DNA of 64,000 bases from a bacterium (GTDB lineage: Bacteria > Patescibacteriota > Minisyncoccia > Phycocordibacterales > VMGT01). The translations under genes were made by a program, and so were the position numbers. How positions within the stretch are numbered: the first letter of the stretch is position 1; the number at the start of each line of letters is the position of its first letter. The notes below the pieces were generated by a model. That model saw nothing but the letters and a program-made list of their open reading frames with translations. It was not told the origin of the DNA and made no database searches. Below are positions 775 through 54,730 of this stretch, piece after piece. The stretch spans positions 1,141 through 65,140 of the forward strand of contig JAUYPI010000004.1 in NCBI GenBank assembly GCA_030697645.1. The letters are read 5' to 3'.

Positions 775-1059
775 ATGGAACAAGCAGCGTTGAAAAATTT
801 TTTGGTGCTTACTGGTATTGGGGTCGGCGCATTAGTCATTGGCACCGTCGGCGGCTATCTTCTGGGCGTCGGGCAGGGGAGGCAGGTGCTGCTTGCGGAG
901 CAAGCAGCAGAGCGTGAGAAGGCCGCAGCAGAGGCTGAAGCAGCGCTCGTCGAGGCGGCGAACCCCTTTGCGGCCGAGAACCAGGCTGCGGCAAATCCCT
1001 TTGAGGGAGCGTATCAGAATCCTTTTGAGGCCGGGACAGTGAATCCGTTTGCACAGTAG
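775..1059 (+). CDS. hypothetical N-terminally membrane-anchored protein with NPF repeats
   Basis: 94-aa ORF; one N-terminal TM helix, Ala/Glu-rich, repeated NPF motifs; no recognisable family. Confidence 0.35.
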   Translation: MEQAALKNFLVLTGIGVGALVIGTVGGYLLGVGQGRQVLLAEQAAEREKAAAEAEAALVEAANPFAAENQAAANPFEGAYQNPFEAGTVNPFAQ

Positions 1060-1202: not shown

Positions 1203-3701
1203 ATGATGAACCACAGAACGCGTATTTTTTTGCGTGCGGGGTCACCCGTATTCCTCCTCTTTTTTGCGTTGTCCGTTGGCGCGCAGAATCCCTTTGACGC
1301 GCTGCAATTTCCGATCGCCGGGCTTGGCGACTGCGCCTCGGTTGAGGGATGCAAGCTCTATTGTGATGAGCCGGAGAACGCTCGCGCCTGCAGTGAGTGG
1401 GCGCGGGCGAATGGTTTTGGATCTGGCGGTCGTCGGGAGGACGGTGATCAAGAGCGCAGTGGCGAGGCAGGAGGGGATGAAGAACGTATCGAACACGCAC
1501 GAGAGACGCTCGAGCGGACGACTGGTCCCGGCGGCTGCAGCAGCCCCGAGGAGTGCGATGTGTATTGTTCAGAAGAGGCGCACCACGATGAGTGCCGTGC
1601 ATTTGCGCGCGAGCACGGTTTTGATACGCACGAGGAGGAACGGATCGGGCCTGGCGGCTGCCATTCCGAAGATGAGTGTCAGTCGTACTGTCGTAACCCT
1701 GAACACACGAGAGAGTGCGTTGCATTTGGCCTTAAAAACGGCAACTTGAGCCCGGAGGAGGCGGCGCGAATACTTTCACAGATTGAACGCGCGCATACGA
1801 TTGGTGCTGAAGCGCGAAATCGCGCTCGAGAGGCAGGCGAGCGCGTGCAAGGCGAAGTGGGCGAGCGTATCCGCGGCAAGATTGAGCGGTTTGATGAGAG
1901 ACGTGGGCGCGGCCCGCGCGGCCCTCGGATCGAGGTGCGCGAGCCGAAGATTGACGAGGAGAAGGCGCGGCAAATCCTCGAGACCGAAGGGGGACCCGGC
2001 GGCTGCAGCACGTTTGATGCGTGCGAGCAATTTTGTAATGCTCCCGAGAACGGCGAGACGTGCATGCAATTTGCGCTCGAGCATGATCTCATCGCGGGCG
2101 ACGAGGCCGCGCGGATGCGGCGGCTCATGGATTCAACAGGCCCCGGGGGATGTCGCGGAAGGGCATGCGAGCAGTATTGTGAAGCGCCAGGCCACGAGCT
2201 TGAGTGTATTGAGCACGCGGAGGGACTCGGTTTGATTGATCCCACGGAGGCAGAGCGCGTTCGTGGCTTCATGCGCCGCGGCGAAGAGCGCGGGCTCGGC
2301 TGCCGCGGCCGCGAGTGCGAGCGCTATTGCGAAGACCCGGCGCATCGCGACCAGTGCTTCGAGGCGTTTAAGGATCTCATCCCCGAGGAGGAGCGGGCGC
2401 ACATTGAAAAGTTCAAAGCAATTGAAGCACGCGTCGAGTCAGCGGGTGGACCCGGCGGGTGCAGAGCAGAGGAAGAATGCCATCAGTATTGCTCCGACTC
2501 CGCGCATTTTGACGAGTGTGCCGCGTTTGCCGTCGAGGCGGGGCTCTTCTCTCCCGAGGATGCGGAAAAGATGCTGAAGCAATTTATTAATGTCGAGAAT
2601 TTTCGAGGTGGTGGGCCGGAGGGTGTCACGGCCCCGCCGGGATTTGAGGGTTTCGGCGAGCTCGGCGAGCCACCGCCGTTTGAGCATTTTGAAGATTTTG
2701 AACTGCCGGAGGGCGTGCCCCCGGAAGCACGGGAGCAGTTCAAGGCGCAGTTTGAGCAGGGGTTTCAAGGTGAATACCGGCAGCGGTTTGAAGAAGAGTT
2801 CCGGGCGCGTGCCGGACGCTTTGGGGAGTTTCGGCAACAGTTTGGCGGGGAAGGCGGCGAGCACGGGCAGTTTCCCGGTGGATTCGGAGCACCGCAGGGT
2901 GGAATGCCTCCGGGTGGTTTCGGCGGGGGTTCTGGCGAGGGCGGTTTTCAAGGATTTCCGCAGCAGGGAGGTGAGACGAGCGTGCAACGGACAAGCGGCG
3001 GCATCTCGCACATCAGTCTGAAGACAAACGACTCCGGTCTCTTCACGCTTCGCATCGAGGACTCGGACGGTATCGCGAGCTTTGCGCTCGATCCCGCCGA
3101 GGGCTCACGCTACGGCGGGGATGTGCCGAACTGCCCGCGTCGGCATGAATCAACCACCGTGCGCCTCAGCGGCTCGTTCCCGTACACGCTTACTTACACC
3201 GACTGCGCGGGGAACACCACTGAACGCACGCTCTCGCAGAACGAAGCGTACGGCACTCCAACTGCGCCGCCCCAGGGATCGTTGCCGGGAGCGGGCACTG
3301 TACCAGTCCAGCCCCCGGGAGTTGGGGGAATTCCGCAAGGGTTTGACCCGCGTTCGGTCGGCCTCCCCGAAGGCTTCCAGTTCGACGGGAGCAACATCCC
3401 GCCGGAGTTCCTCACAGACGAACTCCGCGCGCAGATTGAAGAGATGCGACGCCGTGAGACCGAGAACCAATACCACGAGCAGTACCAACAACAATCTGAT
3501 CAACAGTATCAGCAGCAGTATAATCAGCAGTACCAACAACAATACGACCAGCAGCAACAAAATTTCACACCGCCGGAATATCAGTACCCCCCACCCGAGG
3601 GCACCGAGCAGCACATAGACTCCACAGCCCCAACCGGCTTTTTCCTCTCCCGCATGATCGCGAACGCCGCGCGGGCGTTCCTGGAGTTGTTGGGAAGGTA
3701 G
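1203..3701 (+). CDS. secreted cysteine-rich repeat protein (7 tandem 4-Cys modules) with Gly/Phe-rich and Gln/Tyr-rich low-complexity tail
   Basis: Start moved to internal ATG 1203 after the palindromic element; signal-peptide-like N-terminus; repeats GPGGC-x5-C-x3-C-x8-C...; C-terminal QYQQQYNQQYQQQY. Confidence 0.6.
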   Translation: MMNHRTRIFLRAGSPVFLLFFALSVGAQNPFDALQFPIAGLGDCASVEGCKLYCDEPENARACSEWARANGFGSGGRREDGDQERSGEAGGDEERIEHARETLERTTGPGGCSSPEECDVYCSEEAHHDECRAFAREHGFDTHEEERIGPGGCHSEDECQSYCRNPEHTRECVAFGLKNGNLSPEEAARILSQIERAHTIGAEARNRAREAGERVQGEVGERIRGKIERFDERRGRGPRGPRIEVREPKIDEEKARQILETEGGPGGCSTFDACEQFCNAPENGETCMQFALEHDLIAGDEAARMRRLMDSTGPGGCRGRACEQYCEAPGHELECIEHAEGLGLIDPTEAERVRGFMRRGEERGLGCRGRECERYCEDPAHRDQCFEAFKDLIPEEERAHIEKFKAIEARVESAGGPGGCRAEEECHQYCSDSAHFDECAAFAVEAGLFSPEDAEKMLKQFINVENFRGGGPEGVTAPPGFEGFGELGEPPPFEHFEDFELPEGVPPEAREQFKAQFEQGFQGEYRQRFEEEFRARAGRFGEFRQQFGGEGGEHGQFPGGFGAPQGGMPPGGFGGGSGEGGFQGFPQQGGETSVQRTSGGISHISLKTNDSGLFTLRIEDSDGIASFALDPAEGSRYGGDVPNCPRRHESTTVRLSGSFPYTLTYTDCAGNTTERTLSQNEAYGTPTAPPQGSLPGAGTVPVQPPGVGGIPQGFDPRSVGLPEGFQFDGSNIPPEFLTDELRAQIEEMRRRETENQYHEQYQQQSDQQYQQQYNQQYQQQYDQQQQNFTPPEYQYPPPEGTEQHIDSTAPTGFFLSRMIANAARAFLELLGR

Positions 3702-4906: not shown

Positions 4907-6025
4907 ATGAGTATTGTTATTTTTTTAGTTATTCTCGCCGTCCTGATCCTCGTCCACGAGTTCGGGCATTTTTTGCTTGCGAAGCAAGCGGGGATTCGTG
5001 TGGATGAGTTTGGCCTCGGCTTTCCGCCGCGTCTCTTTGGTCGAAGGAAGGGCGAGACCATGTACTCGATCAATGCGATTCCGTTTGGCGGTTTTGTGAA
5101 AATTTTTGGCGAGGACCCTTCTGAGGAGGCGCGGAACGGCCCGGATGCCGCGCGAAGTTTTATTAACCGCCCGAGGGCGACGCAGGCGGCGGTGCTCGGT
5201 GCCGGTGTCGTGTTCAATCTCCTTTTCGCGTGGCTTCTCCTCACGGCGGCATTTACTTCCGGAATGCCTGCATCAGTCGGGTTCGCTGAGGGATTGCCGG
5301 TCACGAACGAGCGCGTCATAATTACGAGCGTGCTCCCTGGCTCGAGCGCGGAGCGCGCGGGACTCGAGAGCGGCGACATCATTCGTGCGGTTGACGCCAA
5401 GGACGGCGTCGTTGGCGCGGTGAGCGTCGAGGCCATACAGCAGTTTATTGCCGCGCGTGGCGGGGAGCCACTTCTTCTTACCTACGAGCGCGACGGAGCA
5501 GTCGAGCAGGCGTCGGTGACACCGGCAGTTTTAGCGTTTGAGACGCTCGAGGCGAGTGGAGCTGCCGCTCGACCAGTTATCGGCATCACGATGGACATGA
5601 TCGGCGAGGTGGCGCTGCCGCTCCACCTCGCAGCAGTTGCGAGCGGCCGTCTTTCCTTTGAGCTTCCGGGGCGCATCGCGGTCGGCCTCGGCGAGCTTAT
5701 CGCCGGGGCAATTCGCGGCACCGCGGACTTCTCCGAAGTCGCCGGGCCGGTCGGGATCGTGGGGCTCGTTGGCGAGGCGGCTCAGTTTGGGTTCGTCTCG
5801 CTCCTCTCATTCACCGCTTTCATATCGCTCAATCTCGCGGTGATCAACCTTCTGCCGTTCCCGGCGCTCGACGGCGGGCGGCTGCTTTTTGTCGGGATCG
5901 AGGCGCTGAAGCGCAGCCCCATCAGCCCGCGGATCGCGAACACTGCGAACACCGTGGGCTTCGTCCTTCTTATCCTCCTCATGCTCGCGGTGACGTACAA
6001 CGACGTCGTGCGCTTGCTACACTGA
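4907..6025 (+). CDS. rseP: RIP zinc metalloprotease RseP (site-2 protease, M50 with PDZ)
   Basis: 372 aa; HEFGH zinc motif at N-terminus, PDZ-like middle (VLPGSSAERAGLESGDIIRAVD), C-terminal LDGG motif, multiple TM helices. Confidence 0.85.
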   Translation: MSIVIFLVILAVLILVHEFGHFLLAKQAGIRVDEFGLGFPPRLFGRRKGETMYSINAIPFGGFVKIFGEDPSEEARNGPDAARSFINRPRATQAAVLGAGVVFNLLFAWLLLTAAFTSGMPASVGFAEGLPVTNERVIITSVLPGSSAERAGLESGDIIRAVDAKDGVVGAVSVEAIQQFIAARGGEPLLLTYERDGAVEQASVTPAVLAFETLEASGAAARPVIGITMDMIGEVALPLHLAAVASGRLSFELPGRIAVGLGELIAGAIRGTADFSEVAGPVGIVGLVGEAAQFGFVSLLSFTAFISLNLAVINLLPFPALDGGRLLFVGIEALKRSPISPRIANTANTVGFVLLILLMLAVTYNDVVRLLH

Positions 6026-10161: not shown

Positions 10162-10954
10162 GATAAACACTTTGGCTAATAATGTGCCTTTTTGGACCCC
10201 GGCCTTGAGTTGCGTTGAGGCGGGGAGGCTTTCTAAAACAATATCGATGAGTATACCGGAATGTTCGTTGAGGCGCAAACATAAGCGCTACGACATTTGA
10301 CCTGTAACATTTGACCATTGACCGTCAATAAGAATGTCCGTGCCCCCATTTCGTATTTGAAATGGTCGTGAAAAAAGAAATCCTGCCGTTCGGCTTATGT
10401 GCCTACTTGGCAGGATGCGAGGATGAGGATTACCCTCCGTAACGTCCGCGTCCGCTATACAAAAAATTTAATCAAACGCCTAATATATAGCGAAAATATA
10501 GCCAATAATGGGAAGTATATAAAAAGCAGCGCCGGTACCGGGTCTGACCATGGTCGGCGACTGATCTCTTCCCAGAAATTTGGCGAGTTCGGACACGTAA
10601 GCTTAAGCACCTCAGGCAGGATCGCATTAATCGGGTCTAACCATGTACACATAGTAACCTCCTCAAGAACCTATCTCACCTTGCTTTACTGTTCTTACGT
10701 TTATATACTACATAGTGAGATTAAAATCAAAGTAGATACATGTAGTGCGTCGAGTATGAAGAAAGTATTTTTTATCGCTTTCCTCGGCAGCCGCTCTCGT
10801 GTAGCCGCCGAAGCCTAAGCAATGTACGCGGGTCTTGCCGAGTATTTTACCTCGCAGAGCGGCGGAGGGGGATGCTCACCCGGGGCCGAGAAGCAAGGGA
10901 AGTGTTGAGCTTTGGGCGCGCTCCACACATAGCGCGCGGAGCGTAGGAGAGACC

Positions 10955-26654: not shown

Positions 26655-26830
26655 TGGTGGTATTAAGGTTTGAAATTCGAAGCACGAATATCGAAATCCG
26701 AACCGAACATTTGACCAGTGACATTTGACGCCTGGCTTCGAACCCGCTGTCGCCGTGTCAAAGGTCAAATGTCACATGTTAAATGTCGTGATTCGAATTT
26801 CGTGCTTCTATATTCGGATTTTGGCGGTAC
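26655..26830. repeat. composite modular palindromic element (cgaaatccgaa arms + acatttgacc/ggtcaaatgt core)
   Basis: Combines the arm module of the 30367/40893 elements with the core of the 1062 element. Confidence 0.6.
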
Positions 26831-28154: not shown

Positions 28155-28811
28155 ATGCACGCGGTAGACACCATTTTTTTTGTCGTGGTACTCATTATGT
28201 CTGTTGTCGTGCACGAGGTGGCGCACGGCCATGCGGCGAACATGCTCGGCGATCCCACAGCACGGCTCTCGGGGCGTCTCACGCTAAACCCGCTCTTGCA
28301 CATCGACCCCATGGGTTCGATCATTATCCCGCTGCTCCTCATCACGACGAACGCGGGTTTCCTCTTCGGCTGGGCGAAACCGGTGCCGTACAATCCATAC
28401 AACCTCCGTAACCAGCGGTGGGGGACGCTTCTCGTCGGCGGCGCGGGCGTTCTCGCGAATTTTTTCCTCGCGCTCGTATTCGGGCTCCTCGTGCGTTTCT
28501 CTGGCCTCGGCCCGGAGCAGCTGCTTGCTTCAACATTTTTCCGCGCTGCAATCATAATCACTGGTCTCAACATGGTGCTCGGCGTCTTCAACCTGATCCC
28601 CGTGCCGCCGCTTGACGGCTCGAAAGTGCTTTTTTCGCTCTTGCCGTATCATTTGTCGCACATTGAGCGTCTGCTCGAGCAGTACTGGTACCTCTTCCTC
28701 ATCCCCGTTTTTTTATTCGCTGGCTTTATCATCGTGCCGGCGGTGAACGCCGTGTTTTCCCTCATCACGGGTTACTCGCTCGGCCTCTACGTGCTGGCGT
28801 TGCCATTCTAA
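28155..28811 (+). CDS. site-2 protease family zinc metalloprotease (M50B, SpoIVFB-like)
   Basis: HEVAH zinc motif in TM1, polytopic, LDG-containing motif (PLDGSKVL). Confidence 0.75.
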   Translation: MHAVDTIFFVVVLIMSVVVHEVAHGHAANMLGDPTARLSGRLTLNPLLHIDPMGSIIIPLLLITTNAGFLFGWAKPVPYNPYNLRNQRWGTLLVGGAGVLANFFLALVFGLLVRFSGLGPEQLLASTFFRAAIIITGLNMVLGVFNLIPVPPLDGSKVLFSLLPYHLSHIERLLEQYWYLFLIPVFLFAGFIIVPAVNAVFSLITGYSLGLYVLALPF

Positions 28812-37432: not shown

Positions 37433-37640
37433 TTGACAACCACGGCGCGAGCCGTAGACTGAAAACATAAAAAAGTTCTACATCTCTCTCGCCACCCTCT
37501 GTATTTTGTCGGCGGTGTTTGGTATTTGGACAGCGAGCCGCGCGGGTAGCGAAGAGATCAGTGCATGCGTCGGCACCTCTGGCCTCATGCGCTCTCTCGC
37601 GAGCGGCGAGTGCCGTCGCGGAGAAACGGGATTTAAATAG
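37433..37640 (+). pseudogene. duplicated 5' fragment (upstream region + first ~55 codons) of the secreted-protein gene at 40165; start codon mutated (ATG to ATA)
   Basis: ~90% identity to 40133-40330 (ttgacaaccacggcgcga...aaaaagttctacatctctctcgcca...), reading KKFYISLATLCILSAVFGIWT... then premature stop. Confidence 0.6.
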
Positions 37641-37654
37641 CCGAGGAGGTAGCC

Positions 37655-38485
37655 GAGGAGGGTCAGACCCTCCTCGGTTTGCAGAGCCATCGGTTTACAT
37701 ACTATGTGGTAGGATAATGCTAATGCCGCGACAGACGAGACAGTTTGAAGAGGGCGGGATTTACCATGTCCTCAATAGAGGAGTTGAAAAGAGAAAAATA
37801 TTTTCCAAGACGCAAGATTACCACCGCTTTATACTTGGACTTGAATTTTTCAACTCATCCGATACTACCGACCTGTGGCATCTTCTTGCCCGAGGAGGGT
37901 CTGACCCTCCTCGGGCAAGAGTACAGTCGGTGGGCGAGAGGCTTGCGTCGCAGCGCACGAAGCAAAAATGGCATCTCGTCGATCTCCTTGCTTTTGTGCT
38001 TATGCCAAACCACTTTCATCTTATACTGCGCGAGATTCACGAAGGGGGTATTTCTGCGTTTATGAAAAAGCTGGGTGGATACGCCATGTATTTTAATAAA
38101 CAATATCATCGCGTCGGTCCGCTTTTTCAGTCGCGCTATAAGGCGGTACCGATAAAAAGTGACGCACAACTTTCAGTGATTTATACCTACGTGCATACTA
38201 ATCCGGTAGAGATCATTGAGCCGCTGTGGAAGAAGGAGAACAAGGTGTTTCATCTCGACAAAGCGCTCGCGTACCTCAATGAATATCCTTGGACGAGTTA
38301 TCATGACTATGTGGGGAGGCCACAGTTTCCTTTTGTTACCCAGCGTGATTATTTGTCCGATTACTTTGGGAGCGCACAGGCGTGTCAGAGGGAAGTAGAG
38401 GAGTGGGTAGAGCACAAAGCGGCGATGGCTGACTTTGATCGGCGCGAGTTTGAGTAAGGCAGCAGAGGAGGGTCAGACCCTCCTC
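37655..38485 (+). mobile_element. REP-RAYT unit: RAYT gene bracketed by REP hairpins GAGGAGGGTCAGACCCTCCTC
   Basis: REP copies at 37655-37675 (upstream), 37892-37912 (inside the CDS, inverted centre) and 38465-38485 (8 nt after the stop). Confidence 0.7.
37717..38457 (+). CDS. REP-associated tyrosine transposase (RAYT; IS200/IS605-family Y1 HuH transposase-like)
   Basis: IYHVLNRGVEKRKIF (N-terminal strand, cf. YHVVxRTKYR), HuH motif MPNHFHLIL, catalytic Tyr region FQSRYKAV; 11 codons (LLARGGSDPPRA) are encoded by an in-frame REP copy. Confidence 0.75.
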   Translation: MLMPRQTRQFEEGGIYHVLNRGVEKRKIFSKTQDYHRFILGLEFFNSSDTTDLWHLLARGGSDPPRARVQSVGERLASQRTKQKWHLVDLLAFVLMPNHFHLILREIHEGGISAFMKKLGGYAMYFNKQYHRVGPLFQSRYKAVPIKSDAQLSVIYTYVHTNPVEIIEPLWKKENKVFHLDKALAYLNEYPWTSYHDYVGRPQFPFVTQRDYLSDYFGSAQACQREVEEWVEHKAAMADFDRREFE

Positions 38486-44777: not shown

Positions 44778-45428
44778 GTGGAAGGCGAATGCAAAATGGA
44801 AAAATCAAAAATTAAAATGCCAATGCAAAATACAAAATTGTCTCTGACGATTCTCGGTATTTTTGGATTGGCGTTCGTGTCAGATGTTGCCGATGCGAAA
44901 AGTGTATCCGTTCAAAACATAATCTCGGTTTTTTCTTCAAGCGGCGGGAATGTGGCACGGGAGGGCGAGATCGTGGAGGGAAAAGCGGAGAGCGAGGTCT
45001 TTGTCGAGACACGGGTCAACGGCGCGGTTGTCGAGAGCTACGATTCGAGAAAAGTCGTTGAGGAGAGTGCGGTGGTAGCAGACCTACACACGCAGCAGTT
45101 TAACGATTCGTTCGAGAGTGAGGATGGCTCGGTAGAGACGCATGTGTCGCTAGAAAATAGTGTTGGATATCCGAAAAGTGCGGGGCATCGGATGTCCCGC
45201 AGTACCGTGGAACAGCCGATGTCCACTGTTTCGAGCTCGACGAATGCCACCGCGACGGCAGAAGCGCAGATTGCCGCAACGAGAACCGCGGCAGCCACAT
45301 CGTCCGCAGCAACCACCTCGCTCTTTGCCGCCGGAGCGAGTAATGAGGAATCAGCGGCGCAGAGGTCATTATTCAAAAGAGCGTTCAAGTTTATAGCGTA
45401 TGTCTTTTCTTTCAAGTGGATTTTTTAA
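44778..45428 (+). CDS. secreted hypothetical protein
   Basis: Signal peptide (LSLTILGIFGLAFVSDVADA), Ser/Thr/Ala-rich C-terminus; start ambiguous (44778/44817). Confidence 0.4.
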   Translation: MEGECKMEKSKIKMPMQNTKLSLTILGIFGLAFVSDVADAKSVSVQNIISVFSSSGGNVAREGEIVEGKAESEVFVETRVNGAVVESYDSRKVVEESAVVADLHTQQFNDSFESEDGSVETHVSLENSVGYPKSAGHRMSRSTVEQPMSTVSSSTNATATAEAQIAATRTAAATSSAATTSLFAAGASNEESAAQRSLFKRAFKFIAYVFSFKWIF

Positions 45429-48400
45429 TACGGCGTTCGTGCGGCGCGTGCTCGCGGGCGTGATGGTTGTCGCTCTCCTTATGGTGAGCGCGGTACCGCT
45501 CTCAGTGATTGCCGAGGACGGAGGCGGGGATGTTGTCGCGACCGAGGCCACTCTAGGTGAGAGAGGGACTGACGGGACAGATGGCACCGACGGCGCGGAC
45601 GGTCGCGATCGCGGCGAGCGTGGGACGCGAGATGGTAGCGATGGAGAAGACGGCGGCACGGGCGAGGGCGGCGAGGATGGGAGCGGGGATGAGAGTGGCA
45701 CGGAAGGCACATCCCCTGGAGACGGGACGAGCGGCGAGGATGGCACGGGTACCGAGGAGACTCCAGACGGCGCGGACGGGACTTCTTCAAGCGACACGGG
45801 CAACCAGAGCACGAGCGGCGAAGGGGACACGAGCATCACGACTGGTGCTGCCACGGCCGTGACTGACGTAACGACCAAAGGGAACGTGAATAGCACCGAC
45901 ACAGAGGCTCTAAGCGAGGACGGAAGCGGCAACATTGATGGGAGCGGGAGCGCAAACGGTGGCGGTGGAGGCACCACAGATTCCGGGTCCGAGACCCCAC
46001 CTGCTGCTGATGATGCTGCTGATGATGCTGATGCGCACACGCGCGACGACCGCCGCGACAGCAAAGTGCTCGATAAACGGCCACGTGACAGTGCGACAAC
46101 GACATCGCTTGAGACCATCATCGAGTCTGAAAACGATATCACCGTTGCAAACGAGAATGAGACTCTGGCGTCGAGCGGCTTAAACAGCGCGGGTGGAAGC
46201 GGCTCGGTCAGCGTCACGACCGGCACGTCAACCGCATTTGCAAATATACTCAACGCGGTGAACGTGAACCTGGTGAACTCAAGCGGCCTCATGCTTTTCT
46301 TCAACAGTCTTTTCGGCTCGCTCGGCACGCTTGATCTCCGGACCGCGCTCGGAGGAGATGATGCGCTTATCGGGGGCGGCATTTTTGGCGAGCGAGAACC
46401 CTCGATCGGCACGTGCACCTTCAGTGGCTGCGCGGGCGATGTTTCGACGCGGATATACGCCTCGAGCACCGCGCGGATCTTAAACGACATCATCGTACGC
46501 TCGATCGCGGGGCAGAATGTGGCAACGACGAGTGGCGAGCTCGCACGCATTGATTCCGGCGATGCGCTCGCCGGAGCGAACGTCGTCAATGTTGCGAACA
46601 CGAATATCGTCAATTCAAACTATCTCCTGCTTGCCCTCAACGCCTTCGGCGACTGGGCGGGGGACCTCGTATTCCCGAATGGTGATTTTTTCAAACAAAT
46701 TTTTGGCGGCGGGGCTCGCGGGTCTGGCGACATCGAGGAGGACGAAGAAGGCAGCGAAGCGCACTCACTCGTCGCGAGTACAACGATCGCAAGTACGAAC
46801 ACCGCGGGAGTAGAGAATGAACTCGACGTTGACGCTCGATCGGGCGGGAACGCCGCGACATCGACTCTCGGGAGCGCCGAAATCGAGACCGGCTCCTCGG
46901 CCGCGCTGTCTCAGGTGGTGAACCGGCTCAATCAGAACATCATCGGCGGGAATTCGATGCTTGTACTCCTTCAGATACATGGCGACTGGGCGGGTAATCT
47001 CTTCAACGTCCCCGAGGGGATTCTCTGGGAGAGGACGCCCGGGGGAGTCGCGATTTGGAATGATCCGAATTATGCGGGAGGAGCGGTGGGAGCGGGTACC
47101 AGCGGCTCCAGCGAGGGAGAGGAGGGCAGTCTCGGAGTAATCGAAGACGCTCTCGTGCCGCTCTCGGAGCTCACCGTTTCGCGCGGTGACCGCGAGGCGC
47201 GCCGCGCAGCGCGCGACGCCTCGGACGAGGAGCGTCGCGGTACCACGACGACCGAGATTCTTCACCAAAACGTCGCGGAAATCGCCAACAACGTGAAAGT
47301 CCTCGCGCTCACCGGAGAGAACCGAGCGCAAAGTGTTGGCGATTCACTCATCACGAGCGGGAACGCGCTTGCCGCGGCGAACATCCTCAACATCGCAAAC
47401 ACGAACGTGATCGGTGCGAACTGGATGCTCGCGCTCGTCAATATCTTCGGCGACTGGAGCGGCAACCTCTCGTTCGGCGAGCCGGACCTCTGGATAGGCA
47501 CGACTGTTGACGCGCCGCGGAGTCCCCTAGAGGCCGGCGACGAGCTCACGTATCACTTTACGGTCGCAAACCGTGGCGACGCGCGCGCAAGCAACGTGTG
47601 GCTCAATGCGCGAGCCACCGGCGATCTCATTGCGTTTGATCGGAGCTTTACCGATTCGCTCGGCGACGCGCATTTCTATCTGGGTACGCTCGCGCCCGGC
47701 GATGTGCGGGAGCTCTCGCTCACGGGGCATCTCGATACGCCGCTTCCGTTCGGGAGGCACACGATTGACCATACGTTCGCGATCGCAAGCTACGAGCCGG
47801 AGACGAACCGCGCCGACAACACGGAGACACTCTCGCTCTTTGCATTTGGCGGCGAGGCGCCGGCGACGGGTAGCAGTACCGGCAGCGGCGAGAGCGGCAG
47901 CGGCGCGGGTTCCGGTTCCGGGGAGAGTGGAAGTGGTGCGGGCAGTGGCGGTTCGGACGTTAGTGCAGGCGGGGGCTCGTCAGACGAGAGTGCAGGCGGC
48001 GGTTCAGGCAGTGGCGGTAGTGACGGTGGTATTGGCACAGGCGATACAAACTCCGGCGGGAATACTGGCAGCACAGGGGGCAGCAGCGGCGGCAGTCAAA
48101 GCGGCAGCGGGGGCGCCTCTTCAGGTGGTTCTGGAGGAGGGGGTGGCGGCATTTACTATACGCCGCCAGCGGACTTAGAGATAGAAAAGCGCAACGGCGC
48201 GACCTCACCGGTTCCCGCCGGAAGCTCGGTGGACTACACCGTAGTGATTCAGAATGACGGCCTCGGCGAGGCGTACCACGCCGTGCTGGTCGATGTTCTG
48301 AAAGACAAAGACGGCACGGTGATTCACGAGGAGAGTTGGTCACTTGAGACGATTTATCCAAGCGAGGAGGTGACGGTGAAGTATACGATCGAGTTCAGCC

Positions 48401-49146
48401 TGAATACCGCTCCCGGAACCTACACGAACAGCGCCTACGTGAAGGCCTACGACGGCCATCCCTCGCTTGATCCATTTTACGGTTCTGCCGCGGATTCTCC
48501 GACGGTGACAAGCACGGTTGAGATCAGCAGCGCTTCGGTTTCGTCTGGCTCCTCTGGTACGGGAGGTGGAGGCGCGAACACGACGACGACAAATACAACA
48601 AACACGAATTCGACGGGCACAACACCGCCACCCGCGGCACCCGTGCCGCTATCCCAGAACGAGACCGCGAGCTCGACTAGCGCGACCACAAGCAGCACGC
48701 CCACCACCACTCCGCGAGCGACCTCCTTCAGAGCGACGGCTATCGCAGCAGCGCCAGCGCCGACGAATCCCATTGCCGCGGCGCTCTCGCCTTTCTCGCC
48801 CGCCTTGCTCGGGGCCACCCTCCCTGCGCCAAGTGGCACTCCGGCGTTTGAAGATTTTGAAGATTCAGGTGCCGCCCGCGCGGCGGTGCGAGAGAGCGGT
48901 ATCGCCCGGGAGCGGATTCTTCCTACACTGTCCTCTACGGGCGCGGAACCAGCAAGCGAGACATCGGGAGCACTCACCTCGCGAGACGAGGGGTCGCTTA
49001 CACCCCTCTCTGGCCTCGCGCACGCGGCAGCGGCATTTCTCGCGAGTCTCCCCATTCCGGCATCCATATTTTTGCCGATATTTCTCTTGGTCCTTGTGCT
49101 TGTTGGCATGCTGCTCTTCACTCGTCCTTCTGGCGCCCGGGCATAG
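45400..49146 (+). CDS. giant (1248 aa) cell-surface repeat protein with collagen-like G-X-Y tract, repeated beta modules and C-terminal TM anchor
   Basis: Signal peptide; GERGTDGTDGTDGADGRDRGERGTRDGSDGEDGG; >=4 copies of module ...TSGNALAAANILNIANTNVIGANWMLALVNIFGDWSGNL...; DUF11/CARDB-like segment; C-terminal hydrophobic anchor LPIFLLVLVLVGMLLF. Confidence 0.65.
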   Translation: MSFLSSGFFNTAFVRRVLAGVMVVALLMVSAVPLSVIAEDGGGDVVATEATLGERGTDGTDGTDGADGRDRGERGTRDGSDGEDGGTGEGGEDGSGDESGTEGTSPGDGTSGEDGTGTEETPDGADGTSSSDTGNQSTSGEGDTSITTGAATAVTDVTTKGNVNSTDTEALSEDGSGNIDGSGSANGGGGGTTDSGSETPPAADDAADDADAHTRDDRRDSKVLDKRPRDSATTTSLETIIESENDITVANENETLASSGLNSAGGSGSVSVTTGTSTAFANILNAVNVNLVNSSGLMLFFNSLFGSLGTLDLRTALGGDDALIGGGIFGEREPSIGTCTFSGCAGDVSTRIYASSTARILNDIIVRSIAGQNVATTSGELARIDSGDALAGANVVNVANTNIVNSNYLLLALNAFGDWAGDLVFPNGDFFKQIFGGGARGSGDIEEDEEGSEAHSLVASTTIASTNTAGVENELDVDARSGGNAATSTLGSAEIETGSSAALSQVVNRLNQNIIGGNSMLVLLQIHGDWAGNLFNVPEGILWERTPGGVAIWNDPNYAGGAVGAGTSGSSEGEEGSLGVIEDALVPLSELTVSRGDREARRAARDASDEERRGTTTTEILHQNVAEIANNVKVLALTGENRAQSVGDSLITSGNALAAANILNIANTNVIGANWMLALVNIFGDWSGNLSFGEPDLWIGTTVDAPRSPLEAGDELTYHFTVANRGDARASNVWLNARATGDLIAFDRSFTDSLGDAHFYLGTLAPGDVRELSLTGHLDTPLPFGRHTIDHTFAIASYEPETNRADNTETLSLFAFGGEAPATGSSTGSGESGSGAGSGSGESGSGAGSGGSDVSAGGGSSDESAGGGSGSGGSDGGIGTGDTNSGGNTGSTGGSSGGSQSGSGGASSGGSGGGGGGIYYTPPADLEIEKRNGATSPVPAGSSVDYTVVIQNDGLGEAYHAVLVDVLKDKDGTVIHEESWSLETIYPSEEVTVKYTIEFSLNTAPGTYTNSAYVKAYDGHPSLDPFYGSAADSPTVTSTVEISSASVSSGSSGTGGGGANTTTTNTTNTNSTGTTPPPAAPVPLSQNETASSTSATTSSTPTTTPRATSFRATAIAAAPAPTNPIAAALSPFSPALLGATLPAPSGTPAFEDFEDSGAARAAVRESGIARERILPTLSSTGAEPASETSGALTSRDEGSLTPLSGLAHAAAAFLASLPIPASIFLPIFLLVLVLVGMLLFTRPSGARA

Positions 49147-49355: not shown

Positions 49356-49392
49356 TTGACAGCGCGTTTTGTATTGCTACACTATGGTTATT

Positions 49393-50082
49393 ATGGCAGA
49401 CGAAAGGGACAAGCGGAATTTTGAAAGACGAGAGGGCGCAGTGCGGCCGCCGTTTGAGAGTGGGCCGCGAAACATCTCCTACCAACCATCATCGAATCAG
49501 TCTATGCCCATGGAACCAAAAAATAATCCGACGACAAAAGTAATCGTTATTTTCGTGCTAGGATTTGTGGCAGGTTTTGCCGTCTCGCAAACTTTCCTTA
49601 CCGAGCCACCGGGCGGCAGCGCGACGAACGATCGTACCCGCGAGCTAACTTCAGGAGTTGACAAGAGTCCGCTCGAGAGCGACACGCGTGGCTTGCCGGC
49701 GCCGGACGGCGTCGCCACAGAAGAGAATGATACAGTAGAGCCGAGCGGCGAGATCGTCTCTGGTCCGAGCGCGATCACGATTGAGAGTCAGCCAGCAGGT
49801 GAAACGGTCGCAATCAAGCGATTGGTGCTCGGCGAGCGGGGTTGGGTCGTGATCCACGAAGACGAGCGGGGGAGACCGGGACGGATTCTCGGTGCGGGCC
49901 GCTTTCTGGCTGGCGTACACGCAGATGTACCCGTCGAGCTCTTGCGGAGCACGGAATCCGGCGGCGTTTACTATGGCATGATTCACACTGACGATGGTGA
50001 TGATTTGTTCGACGCAAAGCTGGACGCGCATCTCCCCGACGAGACCGGCAGTCCGATCATGGTGCGGTTCAGCGCGTTGTAA
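49393..50082 (+). CDS. hypothetical membrane-anchored protein
   Basis: Single TM helix then Thr/Glu-rich linker and a globular C-terminal domain. Confidence 0.45.
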   Translation: MADERDKRNFERREGAVRPPFESGPRNISYQPSSNQSMPMEPKNNPTTKVIVIFVLGFVAGFAVSQTFLTEPPGGSATNDRTRELTSGVDKSPLESDTRGLPAPDGVATEENDTVEPSGEIVSGPSAITIESQPAGETVAIKRLVLGERGWVVIHEDERGRPGRILGAGRFLAGVHADVPVELLRSTESGGVYYGMIHTDDGDDLFDAKLDAHLPDETGSPIMVRFSAL

Positions 50083-53340: not shown

Positions 53341-53832
53341 TCAGCATTTTTGTTTACGCGGGGACTGTGATACGACTGCCATCCACCGCAGCGAGATGTC
53401 TGAGAGCGTGCGGGGGTAGTAGATGTTGTCGTAGTCGAACCAGAGACGCATGAACGTGTGCTTCGGCAGACGGCGCACGCTGCTCACTTCAGGGTCTGCG
53501 ATGTAGATGTGCTCGGCGGTGGCGCGGTCGAGCACACTGAAGTGCCCGCGATGCCCTTCGAGCATCCATGCAAGGATGATGAGCCGCCGCTCGGTGTTCA
53601 GCCGTCGGAGGTCTTGCCAGGAGGCGCGTTTTCGCGTCTTCACCGAGAGCCCGAGGCGGCGGAGCGTGCGGAGGAGCTCATCGTTCGTGAGCCCGCCGCG
53701 CTCCCGTGCGCGCGTGAGGCGGTCAATATATGAGAGTGAATAAGGCAGGCCGAAGTAATCGGCCGCCATTTTGATGCAGATGGGGCCGCAGCTCCTGGCG
53801 TGGGGCGGGTTGAGGGGGAGGACCTTGGGCAT
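53341..53832 (-). CDS. peptidase C39-like domain protein
   Basis: Start set at MPKVLPL; Cys-containing N-terminal motif (CGPICIKMAADYFGLPYS) and downstream His (GHFSVLD) consistent with the papain-like C39 fold. Confidence 0.45.
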   Translation of the reverse strand: MPKVLPLNPPHARSCGPICIKMAADYFGLPYSLSYIDRLTRARERGGLTNDELLRTLRRLGLSVKTRKRASWQDLRRLNTERRLIILAWMLEGHRGHFSVLDRATAEHIYIADPEVSSVRRLPKHTFMRLWFDYDNIYYPRTLSDISLRWMAVVSQSPRKQKC

Positions 53833-53924
53833 CGCAGCACCATTGTGCTCGAGAGTGCCGAGAGCGGCAAGACTTGACAGGAGGCAGGCCACTTGGGGAA
53901 CAGGTCTGTCAAACGCCGGAGGGT

Positions 53925-54010
53925 TCGGTTTGGGCGTGCCCCAAAATCCCAAACACGCACGTCGTGTTTGGAGATTGAATTTTGAGTATTGTGATTTGTT
54001 TGGAGACGGG
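53925..54010. repeat. modular palindromic element fragment (cccaaacacgcacgtcgtgtttgg core + tttgg arrays)
   Basis: Same core family as 19944-20103; upstream of the C39-like gene. Confidence 0.5.
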
Positions 54011-54154
54011 TTTTTTGGAGCTTGGGGTTTTCTCACGGCGGGGGACATCCGATGTCCCGCAGTTGATGTTCCGCATTCGATTCCTGACAGTTTTTTGCCC
54101 CGGAAGCGGTAAACTTCCGGGGCGTTAGGGGCATGTGCAAGTGGTGGAGAAACG

Positions 54155-54730
54155 CTATGCGCCCGATCTGTAGATTTCGTGGAATCGCTCCGCGGTGAGG
54201 CGCATTTCGAACTCGTCAACGTAGTTCGTGCCGTCCCATGACCACTCGGGGCGACGGCCGTACTCTTCAAATCCGAACTTAGAAAAAAGCTTCCGGCCAT
54301 GTACGTTCGTCTCGAAGACGTAGCAGTAGAGAAAACGCAGACGGAGATGCCTAAAGGCAAAGCGCGAGAGCGACCGGAGCGCCTCCTGCGCGATGCCCTT
54401 ACCTCGCTCGCTGGGTGCGATGATTAAGCGGCTTACCTTTGCGCGGTGGTGGTAGCCGGCATCAATGCTGGTGAGCATGACCGAGCCGACATGGGTGTGG
54501 TCACTTTCCCGCACGATGGTATAGATCATCGTGTGTAGATCGTCTGCCGAGCGGTGGAGGAATTGGAGTTCCTCGACCACACTATTGTGACTGTGCACCG
54601 GATCAAGAAAACGCCGCGTCTCGGGCGGCTTGGTCAGTGCGAGATAGTGGTCAAAGTCTGTTTTTTCGCTATAGCGGTAGAGCGCTATCGTTCCTTCGCC
54701 TGGGAGGCGATCTTGCATATTGTAGTGCAT
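54155..54730 (-). CDS. GNAT family N-acetyltransferase (RimJ/RimL-like)
   Basis: Acetyl-CoA motif A region (IAPSERGKGIAQEAL) and GNAT length; start at MHYNMQ. Confidence 0.65.
   Translation of the reverse strand: MHYNMQDRLPGEGTIALYRYSEKTDFDHYLALTKPPETRRFLDPVHSHNSVVEELQFLHRSADDLHTMIYTIVRESDHTHVGSVMLTSIDAGYHHRAKVSRLIIAPSERGKGIAQEALRSLSRFAFRHLRLRFLYCYVFETNVHGRKLFSKFGFEEYGRRPEWSWDGTNYVDEFEMRLTAERFHEIYRSGA

Follow-up and report, generated by a model that had tools for sequence, protein, structure and literature searches.

A secreted protein of four-cysteine modules and its NPF-repeat membrane partner: a candidate envelope scaffold of Parcubacteria-type Patescibacteria

The 64,000-nucleotide stretch of a patescibacterial contig analyzed here (JAUYPI010000004.1, assembly GCA_030697645.1), hereafter the window, contains on its forward strand a gene for a secreted protein built on seven modules of four cysteines, preceded by a small gene for a membrane protein with a tail of NPF repeats. 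The conserved unit is the two-gene cassette, because this partner is always found upstream of the large gene while the other neighbours change. The partner, missed by an earlier note based on the letters of the window, constitutes the most informative clue to the function. We propose, with moderate confidence, that the large gene encodes an extracellular envelope scaffold protein in which modules and partner act together as set out below, and the two proteins probably form a conserved cell-surface structure. The large protein is of a familiar kind, that of secreted tandem-repeat proteins with cysteine-stabilised modules; its module, its variant of the beta-sandwich, its C-terminal tail and its partner are all undescribed, without detectable relatives and restricted to a major uncultured lineage.

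The only long open reading frame (ORF) of the region with a coherent product is the forward-strand ORF ending at position 3701, for which TTG 1092 and ATG 1203 are possible starts. The corresponding protein of the metagenome-assembled genome (MAG), Q8R39_00755, labelled “hypothetical protein” by NCBI, is 100% identical to the window protein and starts one codon after ATG 1203, which gives 831 aa. The N-terminus of the window protein reads MMNHRTRIFLRAGSPVFLLFFALSVGA followed by QNPF, the signal peptide being the first 27 residues, and AlphaFold2 (AF2) predicts a single helix over aa 4-24. The homologues display equivalent signal peptides, ending right before a conserved [DN]-[IV]-x-[FY]-P-[IV]-x-E-L-G-x-C segment, and the twin-arginine motif is absent from the signal peptides of the window protein and of its homologues. 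Export through the Sec route is thus indicated by the signal peptide, in agreement with the secreted protein announced in the earlier note. The product is composed of the seven modules, linkers rich in Phe, Glu and Gly, an Ig/FN3-like beta-sandwich, a Gln/Tyr-rich (Q/Y) helix and an amphipathic C-terminal helix (Table 1).

Exactly seven four-cysteine modules were retrieved by a regular-expression scan, the number counted in the earlier note, with their first cysteine at aa 44, 112, 153, 268, 317, 367 and 420, and they contain 28 of the 30 cysteines of the protein. Several details of that first description had to be adjusted. The spacing, given as identical in all modules, is C-x5-C-x3-C-x8-C in five of them and C-x4-C-x3-C-x8-C in modules 5 and 6; the GPGGC lead occurs in 5/7 modules, with GLGDC in module 1 and RGLGC in module 6; and the FA-x-EHGF motif is literal in module 2 only, the family consensus being F-A-x-E-[HN]-G-[LF]. 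Neither do the modules form a strict array of tandem repeats of about 40 aa, since successive starts lie 68, 41, 115, 49, 50 and 53 aa apart, with unequal helical linkers between them. The Phe/Glu- and Gly-rich linkers and the Q/Y tract were on the other hand both recovered. Elsewhere in the six-frame translation of the window the four-cysteine pattern is absent, except for one match containing a stop. The pattern is far beyond chance, because it is so rare in the window and recurs in 923 modules from 120 homologues and in 1,941 cluster representatives, and its conservation across homologues supports the genuine four-cysteine unit that had been put forward.

The 923 modules (673 with the x5 and 250 with the x4 spacing) share an invariant C2-x3-C3 and C3-x8-C4 arrangement in a unit of roughly 45-50 aa, and the consensus over the 120 homologues is G-P-G-G-C-[RK]-[SG]-x-E-E-C-[R]-A-[YF]-C-D-D-P-x-[HN]-x-E-E-C-x-x-F-A-x-E-[HN]-G-[LF]-[IM]-[SP]-x-E-E-A-x-R. 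All four cysteines are intact in 2,474 of the 2,538 modules aligned with a hidden Markov model (HMM), with only four true substitutions, all single, the remainder being truncated alignments. The AF2 prediction of module 7, made from an alignment of 149 modules, reached a predicted local distance difference test score (pLDDT) of 87.9 and places three helices at residues 10-17, 20-33 and 38-47 of the 48-aa unit. In this model C1 lies in the GPGG loop before helix 1, C2 and C3 are on helix 1 at i/i+4, helix 2 bears C4 and the F-A core, and the “sPEEAxR” segment forms helix 3, the FAxEHG motif corresponding to the end of helix 2. This predicted three-helix nature had escaped the earlier note. In the full-length model, of mean pLDDT 73.6, every module is above 90 and aa 250-468, which comprise modules 4-7 with their linkers, are confident throughout, and for this reason the prediction suggests a rigid stacked array.

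No family of Pfam, NCBIfam or the PDB sequences matched over the cysteine module, with either the whole protein or the 149-module profile as query, a Foldseek comparison of the module with the PDB gave no match (best E-value 6), and full-text literature searches found no description of the GPGGC motif or of a four-cysteine surface family in Parcubacteria, Patescibacteria or the candidate phyla radiation (CPR). The match to a described cysteine-rich family that the earlier note had named as contrary evidence was therefore not encountered, and its exclusion of EGF, ferredoxin and zinc-ribbon patterns holds. The module has four cysteines versus six in EGF-like domains, is predicted to be all-helical, and gave no EGF-type Pfam match in a scan read to E<=10. 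Its spacing differs from the CxxCxxCxxxC(P) of 4Fe-4S ferredoxins and from the C-x14-22-C-x2-C-x5-C of WhiB-like proteins, without Fer4 or Whib match and with a Sec rather than a Tat signal, and the modules contain no CxxC of zinc ribbons or zinc fingers, to which their helical prediction and the null Pfam result do not correspond either. Kazal domains (PF00050/PF07648) are absent from the window protein, and those of its relatives are separate C-terminal domains distinct from the four-cysteine modules. The sole sequence likeness concerns the helix 2-turn-helix 3 part (FAxEHGLIsxEEAxR), which weakly resembles the SHOCT-like family PF22746 (18.5 bits over aa 177-195, helix 3 of module 3, and 26.1 bits in the best relative, P0009, for a profile cut-off of 27 bits) and SPP1 gp23.1 (PF20787, 28.6 bits in P0019). 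These matches cover about 20 residues, are mostly sub-threshold, never include the cysteine-bearing part and resemble a generic helix-turn-helix composition.

The CHCH twin-Cx9C proteins, the small Tim twin-Cx3C proteins and the CS-alpha/alpha toxins are likewise small helical units pinned by four cysteines, and the module, with its C-x3-C on one predicted helix, could plausibly work as they do, through helix-to-helix disulfide staples. It differs from them by having one Cx3C only, with the other cysteines 4-5 residues before and 8 after (C-x4/5-C-x3-C-x8-C), by a first cysteine located in the GPGG loop, by a third helix and by its repetition in tandem in an exported bacterial protein, and no Pfam, sequence or Foldseek similarity relates them. 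The Helicobacter cysteine-rich proteins (Hcp, Sel1-like) are also secreted bacterial tandem helical repeats, stabilised by disulfides into a superhelical rod; they have two cysteines and one disulfide per 36-aa Sel1 repeat and a Pfam Sel1 match, whereas the present units carry four cysteines and three predicted helices over about 45-50 aa and match neither Sel1 nor TPR.

As a working definition, the family was delimited by a signal peptide followed by an FP[IV]xELGxC module 1, at least four G-P-G-G-C-x4/5-C-x3-C-x8-C-x2-F-A modules, an amphipathic tail and an upstream transmembrane (TM) gene with NPx repeats, NPx standing for NP[F/L/Y]. All four features are found in the window, whose protein shares 100% identity with homologue P0001 and 74-78% with P0002 and P0003; the FP[IV]xELGxC cap is kept in 76/76 aligned N-termini. 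A word-indexed search collected 286 homologues, the named ones all from MAGs of Patescibacteria/Parcubacteria (including Sungbacteria, Azambacteria and Kaiserbacteria). Compared with 1.84 billion cluster representatives, the module profile had 1,941 protein matches with an E-value up to 1e-3, of which 1,138 remained at a cut-off of 1e-30, family clusters being counted at 50% identity, with 6-13 modules each in the best 150 of the 1,941. A scan of one genome per species returned 79 loci, whose named records are nearly all Patescibacteria, and loci were obtained from Ryan-, Kaiser-, Azam-, Vogel-, Harrison-, Jorgensen-, Yanofsky-, Nomura-, Lloyd-, Colwell- and Sungbacteria as well as from generic “Patescibacteria” bins. 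No relatives were found among IMG/VR viral contigs. The family is specific to Parcubacteria/Paceibacteria-type Patescibacteria, a lineage restriction not perceived in the earlier note. Two loci with the full cassette (L048 and L052) belong to bins labelled “uncultured Gammaproteobacteria bacterium” and “uncultured archaeon”, and one pipeline gave many others the title “uncultured Candidatus Saccharibacteria”; such unverified labels look like placeholders or mis-assignments.

Within the family, orthology between modules follows their position in the array. For each of the seven modules in the window protein, the best match in P0004, a homologue 48% identical, is the module of the same number, and this holds for most of them in P0012 and P0019, the three homologues spanning 41-48% identity, while similarity between modules of the same protein is lower. 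Because of this positional orthology in sequence comparisons, the array is ancient and each of its positions individually constrained, unlike a homogenising spacer repeat. In its genomic setting the large gene has the behaviour of a conserved core gene, lying in housekeeping neighbourhoods, near mreB/mreC/PBP genes in locus L001 and near YceG in L002, and the cassette as a whole behaves like a core envelope component of the lineage.

The constancy of the partner gene is in marked contrast with the rest of these neighbourhoods. In the first four contexts inspected, a small ORF was present upstream in all and every other neighbour was different. Of 84 loci, 81 have a partner-type small ORF immediately upstream of the large gene in the same orientation, and the other three loci begin inside or just before the large gene, which means that every locus with upstream sequence possesses it (81/81). 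The gap between the two genes is usually 1-50 nt. The partner tails bear 2-4 NPx units and end 1-3 residues after the last of them; that of the window ends in NPFAQ before the stop. No NPx-tailed ORF was found elsewhere in these loci, nor any third conserved neighbour (e.g. a sortase, a Dsb protein or a protease), no other neighbour family being present in more than 7 loci. Pfam has no family for the partner, labelled hypothetical protein by NCBI, and its sole Pfam match, with the Rabenosyn-5 NPF repeat model, is sub-threshold (E 0.016) and compositional. The “MNKK + hydrophobic” start of the partner is of signal-anchor type and suggests an N-in/C-out orientation. The numbers of modules and of NPx units are correlated (Spearman 0.67, n=70).

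According to the proposed scaffold role, the large protein would be exported by Sec and its signal peptide cleaved, after which its N-terminal 440 residues would fold into seven three-helix modules, each held closed by its four invariant cysteines, most probably paired in two disulfides. The third helices would serve to stack the modules into a rod-like acidic array, which would bear flexible low-complexity tethers, a binding domain variable among lineages (the Ig/FN3-like sandwich in the window protein, Kazal or laminin-G domains in relatives) and the terminal amphipathic helix. The scaffold would work with the upstream product, a putative signal-anchored membrane protein with its NPx tail outside the cell, and the most economical mechanism would be a multivalent docking of the NPx motifs onto the repeated modules, holding the scaffold at the cell surface. 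This docking is suggested because of the strict co-occurrence of the two genes, the repeat-on-repeat logic and the correlation between module and NPx numbers. It recalls the recognition of NPF motifs by EH domains (Eps15/Rabenosyn-5), where repeated NPF motifs also stand beside a partner of repeated small helical domains; EH domains, however, are EF-hand pairs of about 100 aa without cysteines, share no sequence or fold similarity with the module, and here the system is bacterial and extracytoplasmic, which makes the likeness a pure analogy. A more ambitious version, somewhat unlikely in our opinion, would make of the NPx-module pair a bacterial extracytoplasmic counterpart of short linear motif (SLiM)-domain recognition such as NPF-EH, and of the two genes a hitherto unrecognised lineage-wide surface-anchoring system, in which the NPx tail docks multivalently into a new class of disulfide-stapled three-helix receptor modules and so tethers or polymerises the main envelope scaffold, possibly a surface layer, of Parcubacteria/Paceibacteria.

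Several observations weigh against this scheme. The correlation between module and NPx numbers reflects for the most part a difference between two clades and is confounded by phylogeny, no fusion of NPx repeats and modules of the Rosetta-stone type occurs among 236 proteins, and the NPF at the mature N-terminus of the large protein is found in closer relatives only. The topology of the partner is ambiguous by the positive-inside rule, with on average 1.4 Lys and Arg in the short N-tail and 2.2 in the 15 residues that follow the TM helix. Concerning the disulfides, the 40 ORFs scanned in the 64-kb window include no Dsb or VKOR gene, a result uninformative for such a sample. A pairwise loss of cysteines from which connectivity could be deduced was sought in the HMM-aligned modules and no such pattern appeared, the cysteines being too invariant, and a mean-field direct coupling analysis (DCA) of 1,951 modules gave a contact signal between helices 2 and 3 and nothing fixing the cysteine pairing, the Cys-Cys scores being artefacts of invariance.

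The same four cysteines could in principle coordinate Zn(II), Cu(I), Fe or a different thiophilic metal in a tetrahedral Cys4 site, making the modules an extracellular metal buffer, store or detoxifier, or giving the metal a purely structural function, a reading that we consider distinctly improbable. Its appeal lies in the exact number of four invariant cysteines per module, of which no substitution is tolerated, in the two cysteines at i/i+4 on helix 1, which cannot pair together and could face one site, in the very acidic surroundings and in the mode of life of Parcubacteria-type organisms, mostly inhabiting anoxic groundwater, where thiols could stay reduced. The conserved His/Asn five or four residues before C4 adds a potential ligand, but this residue is not one because His and Asn replace each other freely (52/41% and 73/21%). 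The spacing moreover fits no known Zn, Cu or Fe-S motif, without Pfam match, and Sec exports an unfolded chain into the wall space. The same polypeptides also bear an isolated conserved cysteine pair in the sandwich and, in relatives, Kazal domains, which need three disulfides. Disulfides are thus favoured because of the Sec export, the sandwich cysteine pair retained in 53/53 instances, the Kazal fusions of relatives and the MdbA-like thiol-disulfide oxidoreductase and VKOR, reported as encoded by CPR bacteria and enriched in them (Méheust et al., 10.1101/335083).

The general layout of the protein (signal peptide, repeat block, flexible spacer and variable domains) is that of Gram-positive surface proteins with SLH, CWB2 or PG_binding_1 modules, and by analogy with these the conserved repeat block is likely the anchoring part. 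N-terminal tandem small modules followed by tethers and variable binding domains are the classic layout of proteins attached non-covalently to the wall, and it could accordingly be proposed that the modules attach to peptidoglycan or to a secondary polymer of the wall, the NPF protein being separate and its adjacency reflecting co-expression of envelope genes. The tandem helical modules at the N-terminus, the location of the gene among housekeeping and envelope genes and the lack of a sortase-type signal would fit such a function. We nevertheless regard it as unlikely, since the modules share neither sequence nor fold similarity with known wall-binding modules, the array is cysteine-rich and strongly acidic (pI 4.8) whereas many wall-binding repeats are basic, and the pairing with the NPx gene at all 81 loci with upstream sequence across a deep divergence, while other neighbours change, is hard to explain by co-expression alone. 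For the envelope scaffold proposed here, the candidate ligand would be the co-encoded NPx membrane protein instead of a wall polymer.

The C-terminal half of the large protein is long, fast-evolving and of low complexity across the family. In the window protein it starts with a low-complexity region where pLDDT falls below 50 at aa 470-492 and aa 558-599, and such linkers may be wall-spanning or mesh-forming segments. There and in homologues (e.g. P0004 aa 470-560) they are rich in GFG/PPGF/FGPP, reminiscent of disordered repeats of FG type. The following beta-sandwich is the only part for which the full-length model obtained Foldseek matches, with Ig/FN3 folds and C-terminal domains of the type IX secretion system (T9SS) in the PDB (best E-value 0.017, TM-score 0.73 normalised to the T9SS target). 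Its motif is DGI.EFSL.P..GS.Y.G....CP and 53 instances were found in the family. The HYR-like family with four cysteines (HYR_4C, PF23237) gave 15.5-17.8 bits over 27 residues of this domain, under the same 27-bit cut-off, and the sandwich has two cysteines only; it is an undescribed family-specific domain of generic Ig/FN3-like fold. In relatives the C-terminal domain is swapped for Kazal domains (P0032 aa 600-692, P0053 aa 573-598) or a laminin-G/ConA-like lectin domain, and variable domains of extracellular type are thus carried by the same scaffold.

Further downstream, tyrosines occupy mostly every fourth position of the predicted Q/Y helix and form a tyrosine stripe. The Q/Y tract is encoded by a tandem DNA repeat of 12/24 nt (3468-3554), the sole recent repeat of the gene at the DNA level; the tract is lineage-specific, similar QQY tracts being present in P0016 and P0047. 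In the family, as read from the tails of 236 homologues, the terminal amphipathic helix follows a Pro-rich run and ends in R/K, with the pattern [FL][LF][GA]x[IV][LF]xx[FL]xx[L][FL][RK]; AF2 predicts it with low confidence at aa 815-829 of the window protein. With about 13 aa, a mean Kyte-Doolittle hydropathy of 0.43 and a single terminal R/K, this helix has neither the length nor the apolar character of a TM segment, and neither LPXTG, PEP nor PGF motifs, as in sortase and PEP-CTERM/PGF-CTERM-type signals, are present at the C-terminus. About half of 319 family members carry the conserved tail helix at their C-terminus. Its possible role as a genome-wide sorting signal was rejected, as the tail HMM, applied to 3,754 ORFs taken from the window and the loci, a small sample per genome, matched members of the four-cysteine family only.

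These variable ends evoke a host-interaction adhesin or effector, for which the modules would be a stalk projecting the C-terminal domain and amphipathic helix to a host cell, the domain binding host surface molecules or inhibiting host proteases and the helix inserting into the host membrane. The swapping of Ig/FN3-like, Kazal protease inhibitor and laminin-G lectin-like domains between lineages, the rapid evolution of the low-complexity C-terminal halves and the conservation of the terminal helix are in line with it. We hold little belief in this possibility as well, considering that the gene is a conserved core gene rather than an accessory gene of an island, that the module array is better conserved than what should be the “business end”, and that a fixed order of stalk then tip is contradicted by relatives in which the sandwich precedes the modules (P0206 aa 29-115, P0195 aa 33-122). 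It furthermore overlaps with the scaffold role rather than excluding it.

Table 1. Features of the two-gene cassette in the window (positions on the 64,000-nucleotide stretch)
Feature	Position	Strand	Description	Basis
Partner gene	775..1059	+	94 aa: short N-tail, one TM helix (aa ~9-33), A/E/Q-rich helical linker, four C-terminal NPF repeats (ANPFAAENQAAANPFEGAYQNPFEAGTVNPFAQ, then stop)	ORF
Whole large gene	1203..3701	+	832-aa secreted multi-module protein, stop codon included	ORF and translation
Sec-type signal peptide	1203..1283	+	aa 1-27: basic n-region, hydrophobic core, VGA/Q cleavage motif	sequence reading
N-terminal cap NPFDALQFPIAGLGDC and module 1	1287..1427	+	aa 29-75, C-x5-C-x3-C-x8-C	pLDDT 84-93
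Module 2	1518..1637	+	aa 106-145, GPGGC, x5-x3-x8	scan and AF2
Module 3	1641..1787	+	aa 147-195, GPGGC, x5-x3-x8, third helix LSPEEAARILSQIE	scan
Module 4	1986..2132	+	aa 262-310, GPGGC, x5-x3-x8	scan and AF2
Module 5	2133..2288	+	aa 311-362, GPGGCRGRAC, x4-x3-x8	orthologous to module 5 of P0004, P0012 and P0019
Module 6	2283..2444	+	aa 361-414, RGLGCRGREC, x4-x3-x8	scan and orthology comparison
Module 7	2442..2606	+	aa 414-468, GPGGC, x5-x3-x8	modelled alone by AF2
Low-complexity G/P/F/E/Q-rich region	2607..3002	+	aa 469-600, one long predicted helix (aa 507-548), disordered FG/PPGF-type flanks	composition and AF2
Ig/FN3-like beta-sandwich, seven predicted strands	3003..3251	+	aa 601-683, conserved Cys pair C644, C668	AF2, pLDDT up to 96
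Long predicted helix with Q/Y tract	3417..3560	+	aa 739-786, Q/Y tract aa 755-783	AF2, pLDDT about 86-90
C-terminal amphipathic helix GFFLSRMIANAARAFLELLGR	3636..3698	+	last ~20 aa	homologue tails, motif logo

Between the two genes, a palindromic element of about 110 nt (1060-1175) is made of (GACATTT)n/(GTCAAAT)n heptamers with CGAAATCCGAAC...TTCGGATTTCG-like arms, and its folding energy as RNA is -56.2 kcal/mol (z = -5.7). An operon-specific regulatory hairpin was considered and rejected, given that the same element recurs elsewhere in the window, with a near-identical copy at 26686-26801 and a partial one at 10292-10315, in the manner of a genomic repeat of repetitive extragenic palindrome (REP) or miniature inverted-repeat transposable element (MITE) type. 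Two ORFs of the window have a Peptidase_M50 (site-2 protease) domain (4907-6022 and 28155-28808, both +), of which the RseP-like one, bearing a PDZ domain, is found two genes downstream of the large gene here and in L001 and not in other loci. The window also includes a likely surface-protein region, with a 1,248-aa ORF bearing DUF11 repeats (45400-49143, +) followed by a DUF7282 protein (49369-50079, +), close to which a Peptidase_C39-domain protein is encoded on the opposite strand (53344-54360, -). The ORF at 37519-38454 (+) matches the IS200-like Y1 transposase domain (PF01797, E 3.7e-7).

The Parcubacteria/Paceibacteria rank with the most abundant bacteria and with those least understood, in particular as to how their surface is built and how they attach to partners, and most of their envelope proteins carry the label “hypothetical”. 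With about 1,900 clusters, a module without sequence or structural relatives and one constant partner gene, the family described here represents a concrete and testable candidate for a two-component envelope system. The module itself would be a new small helical fold, disulfide-rich or metal-binding, easy to study in isolation, and the docking of NPx motifs onto modules, if true, would constitute a new mode of surface anchoring.

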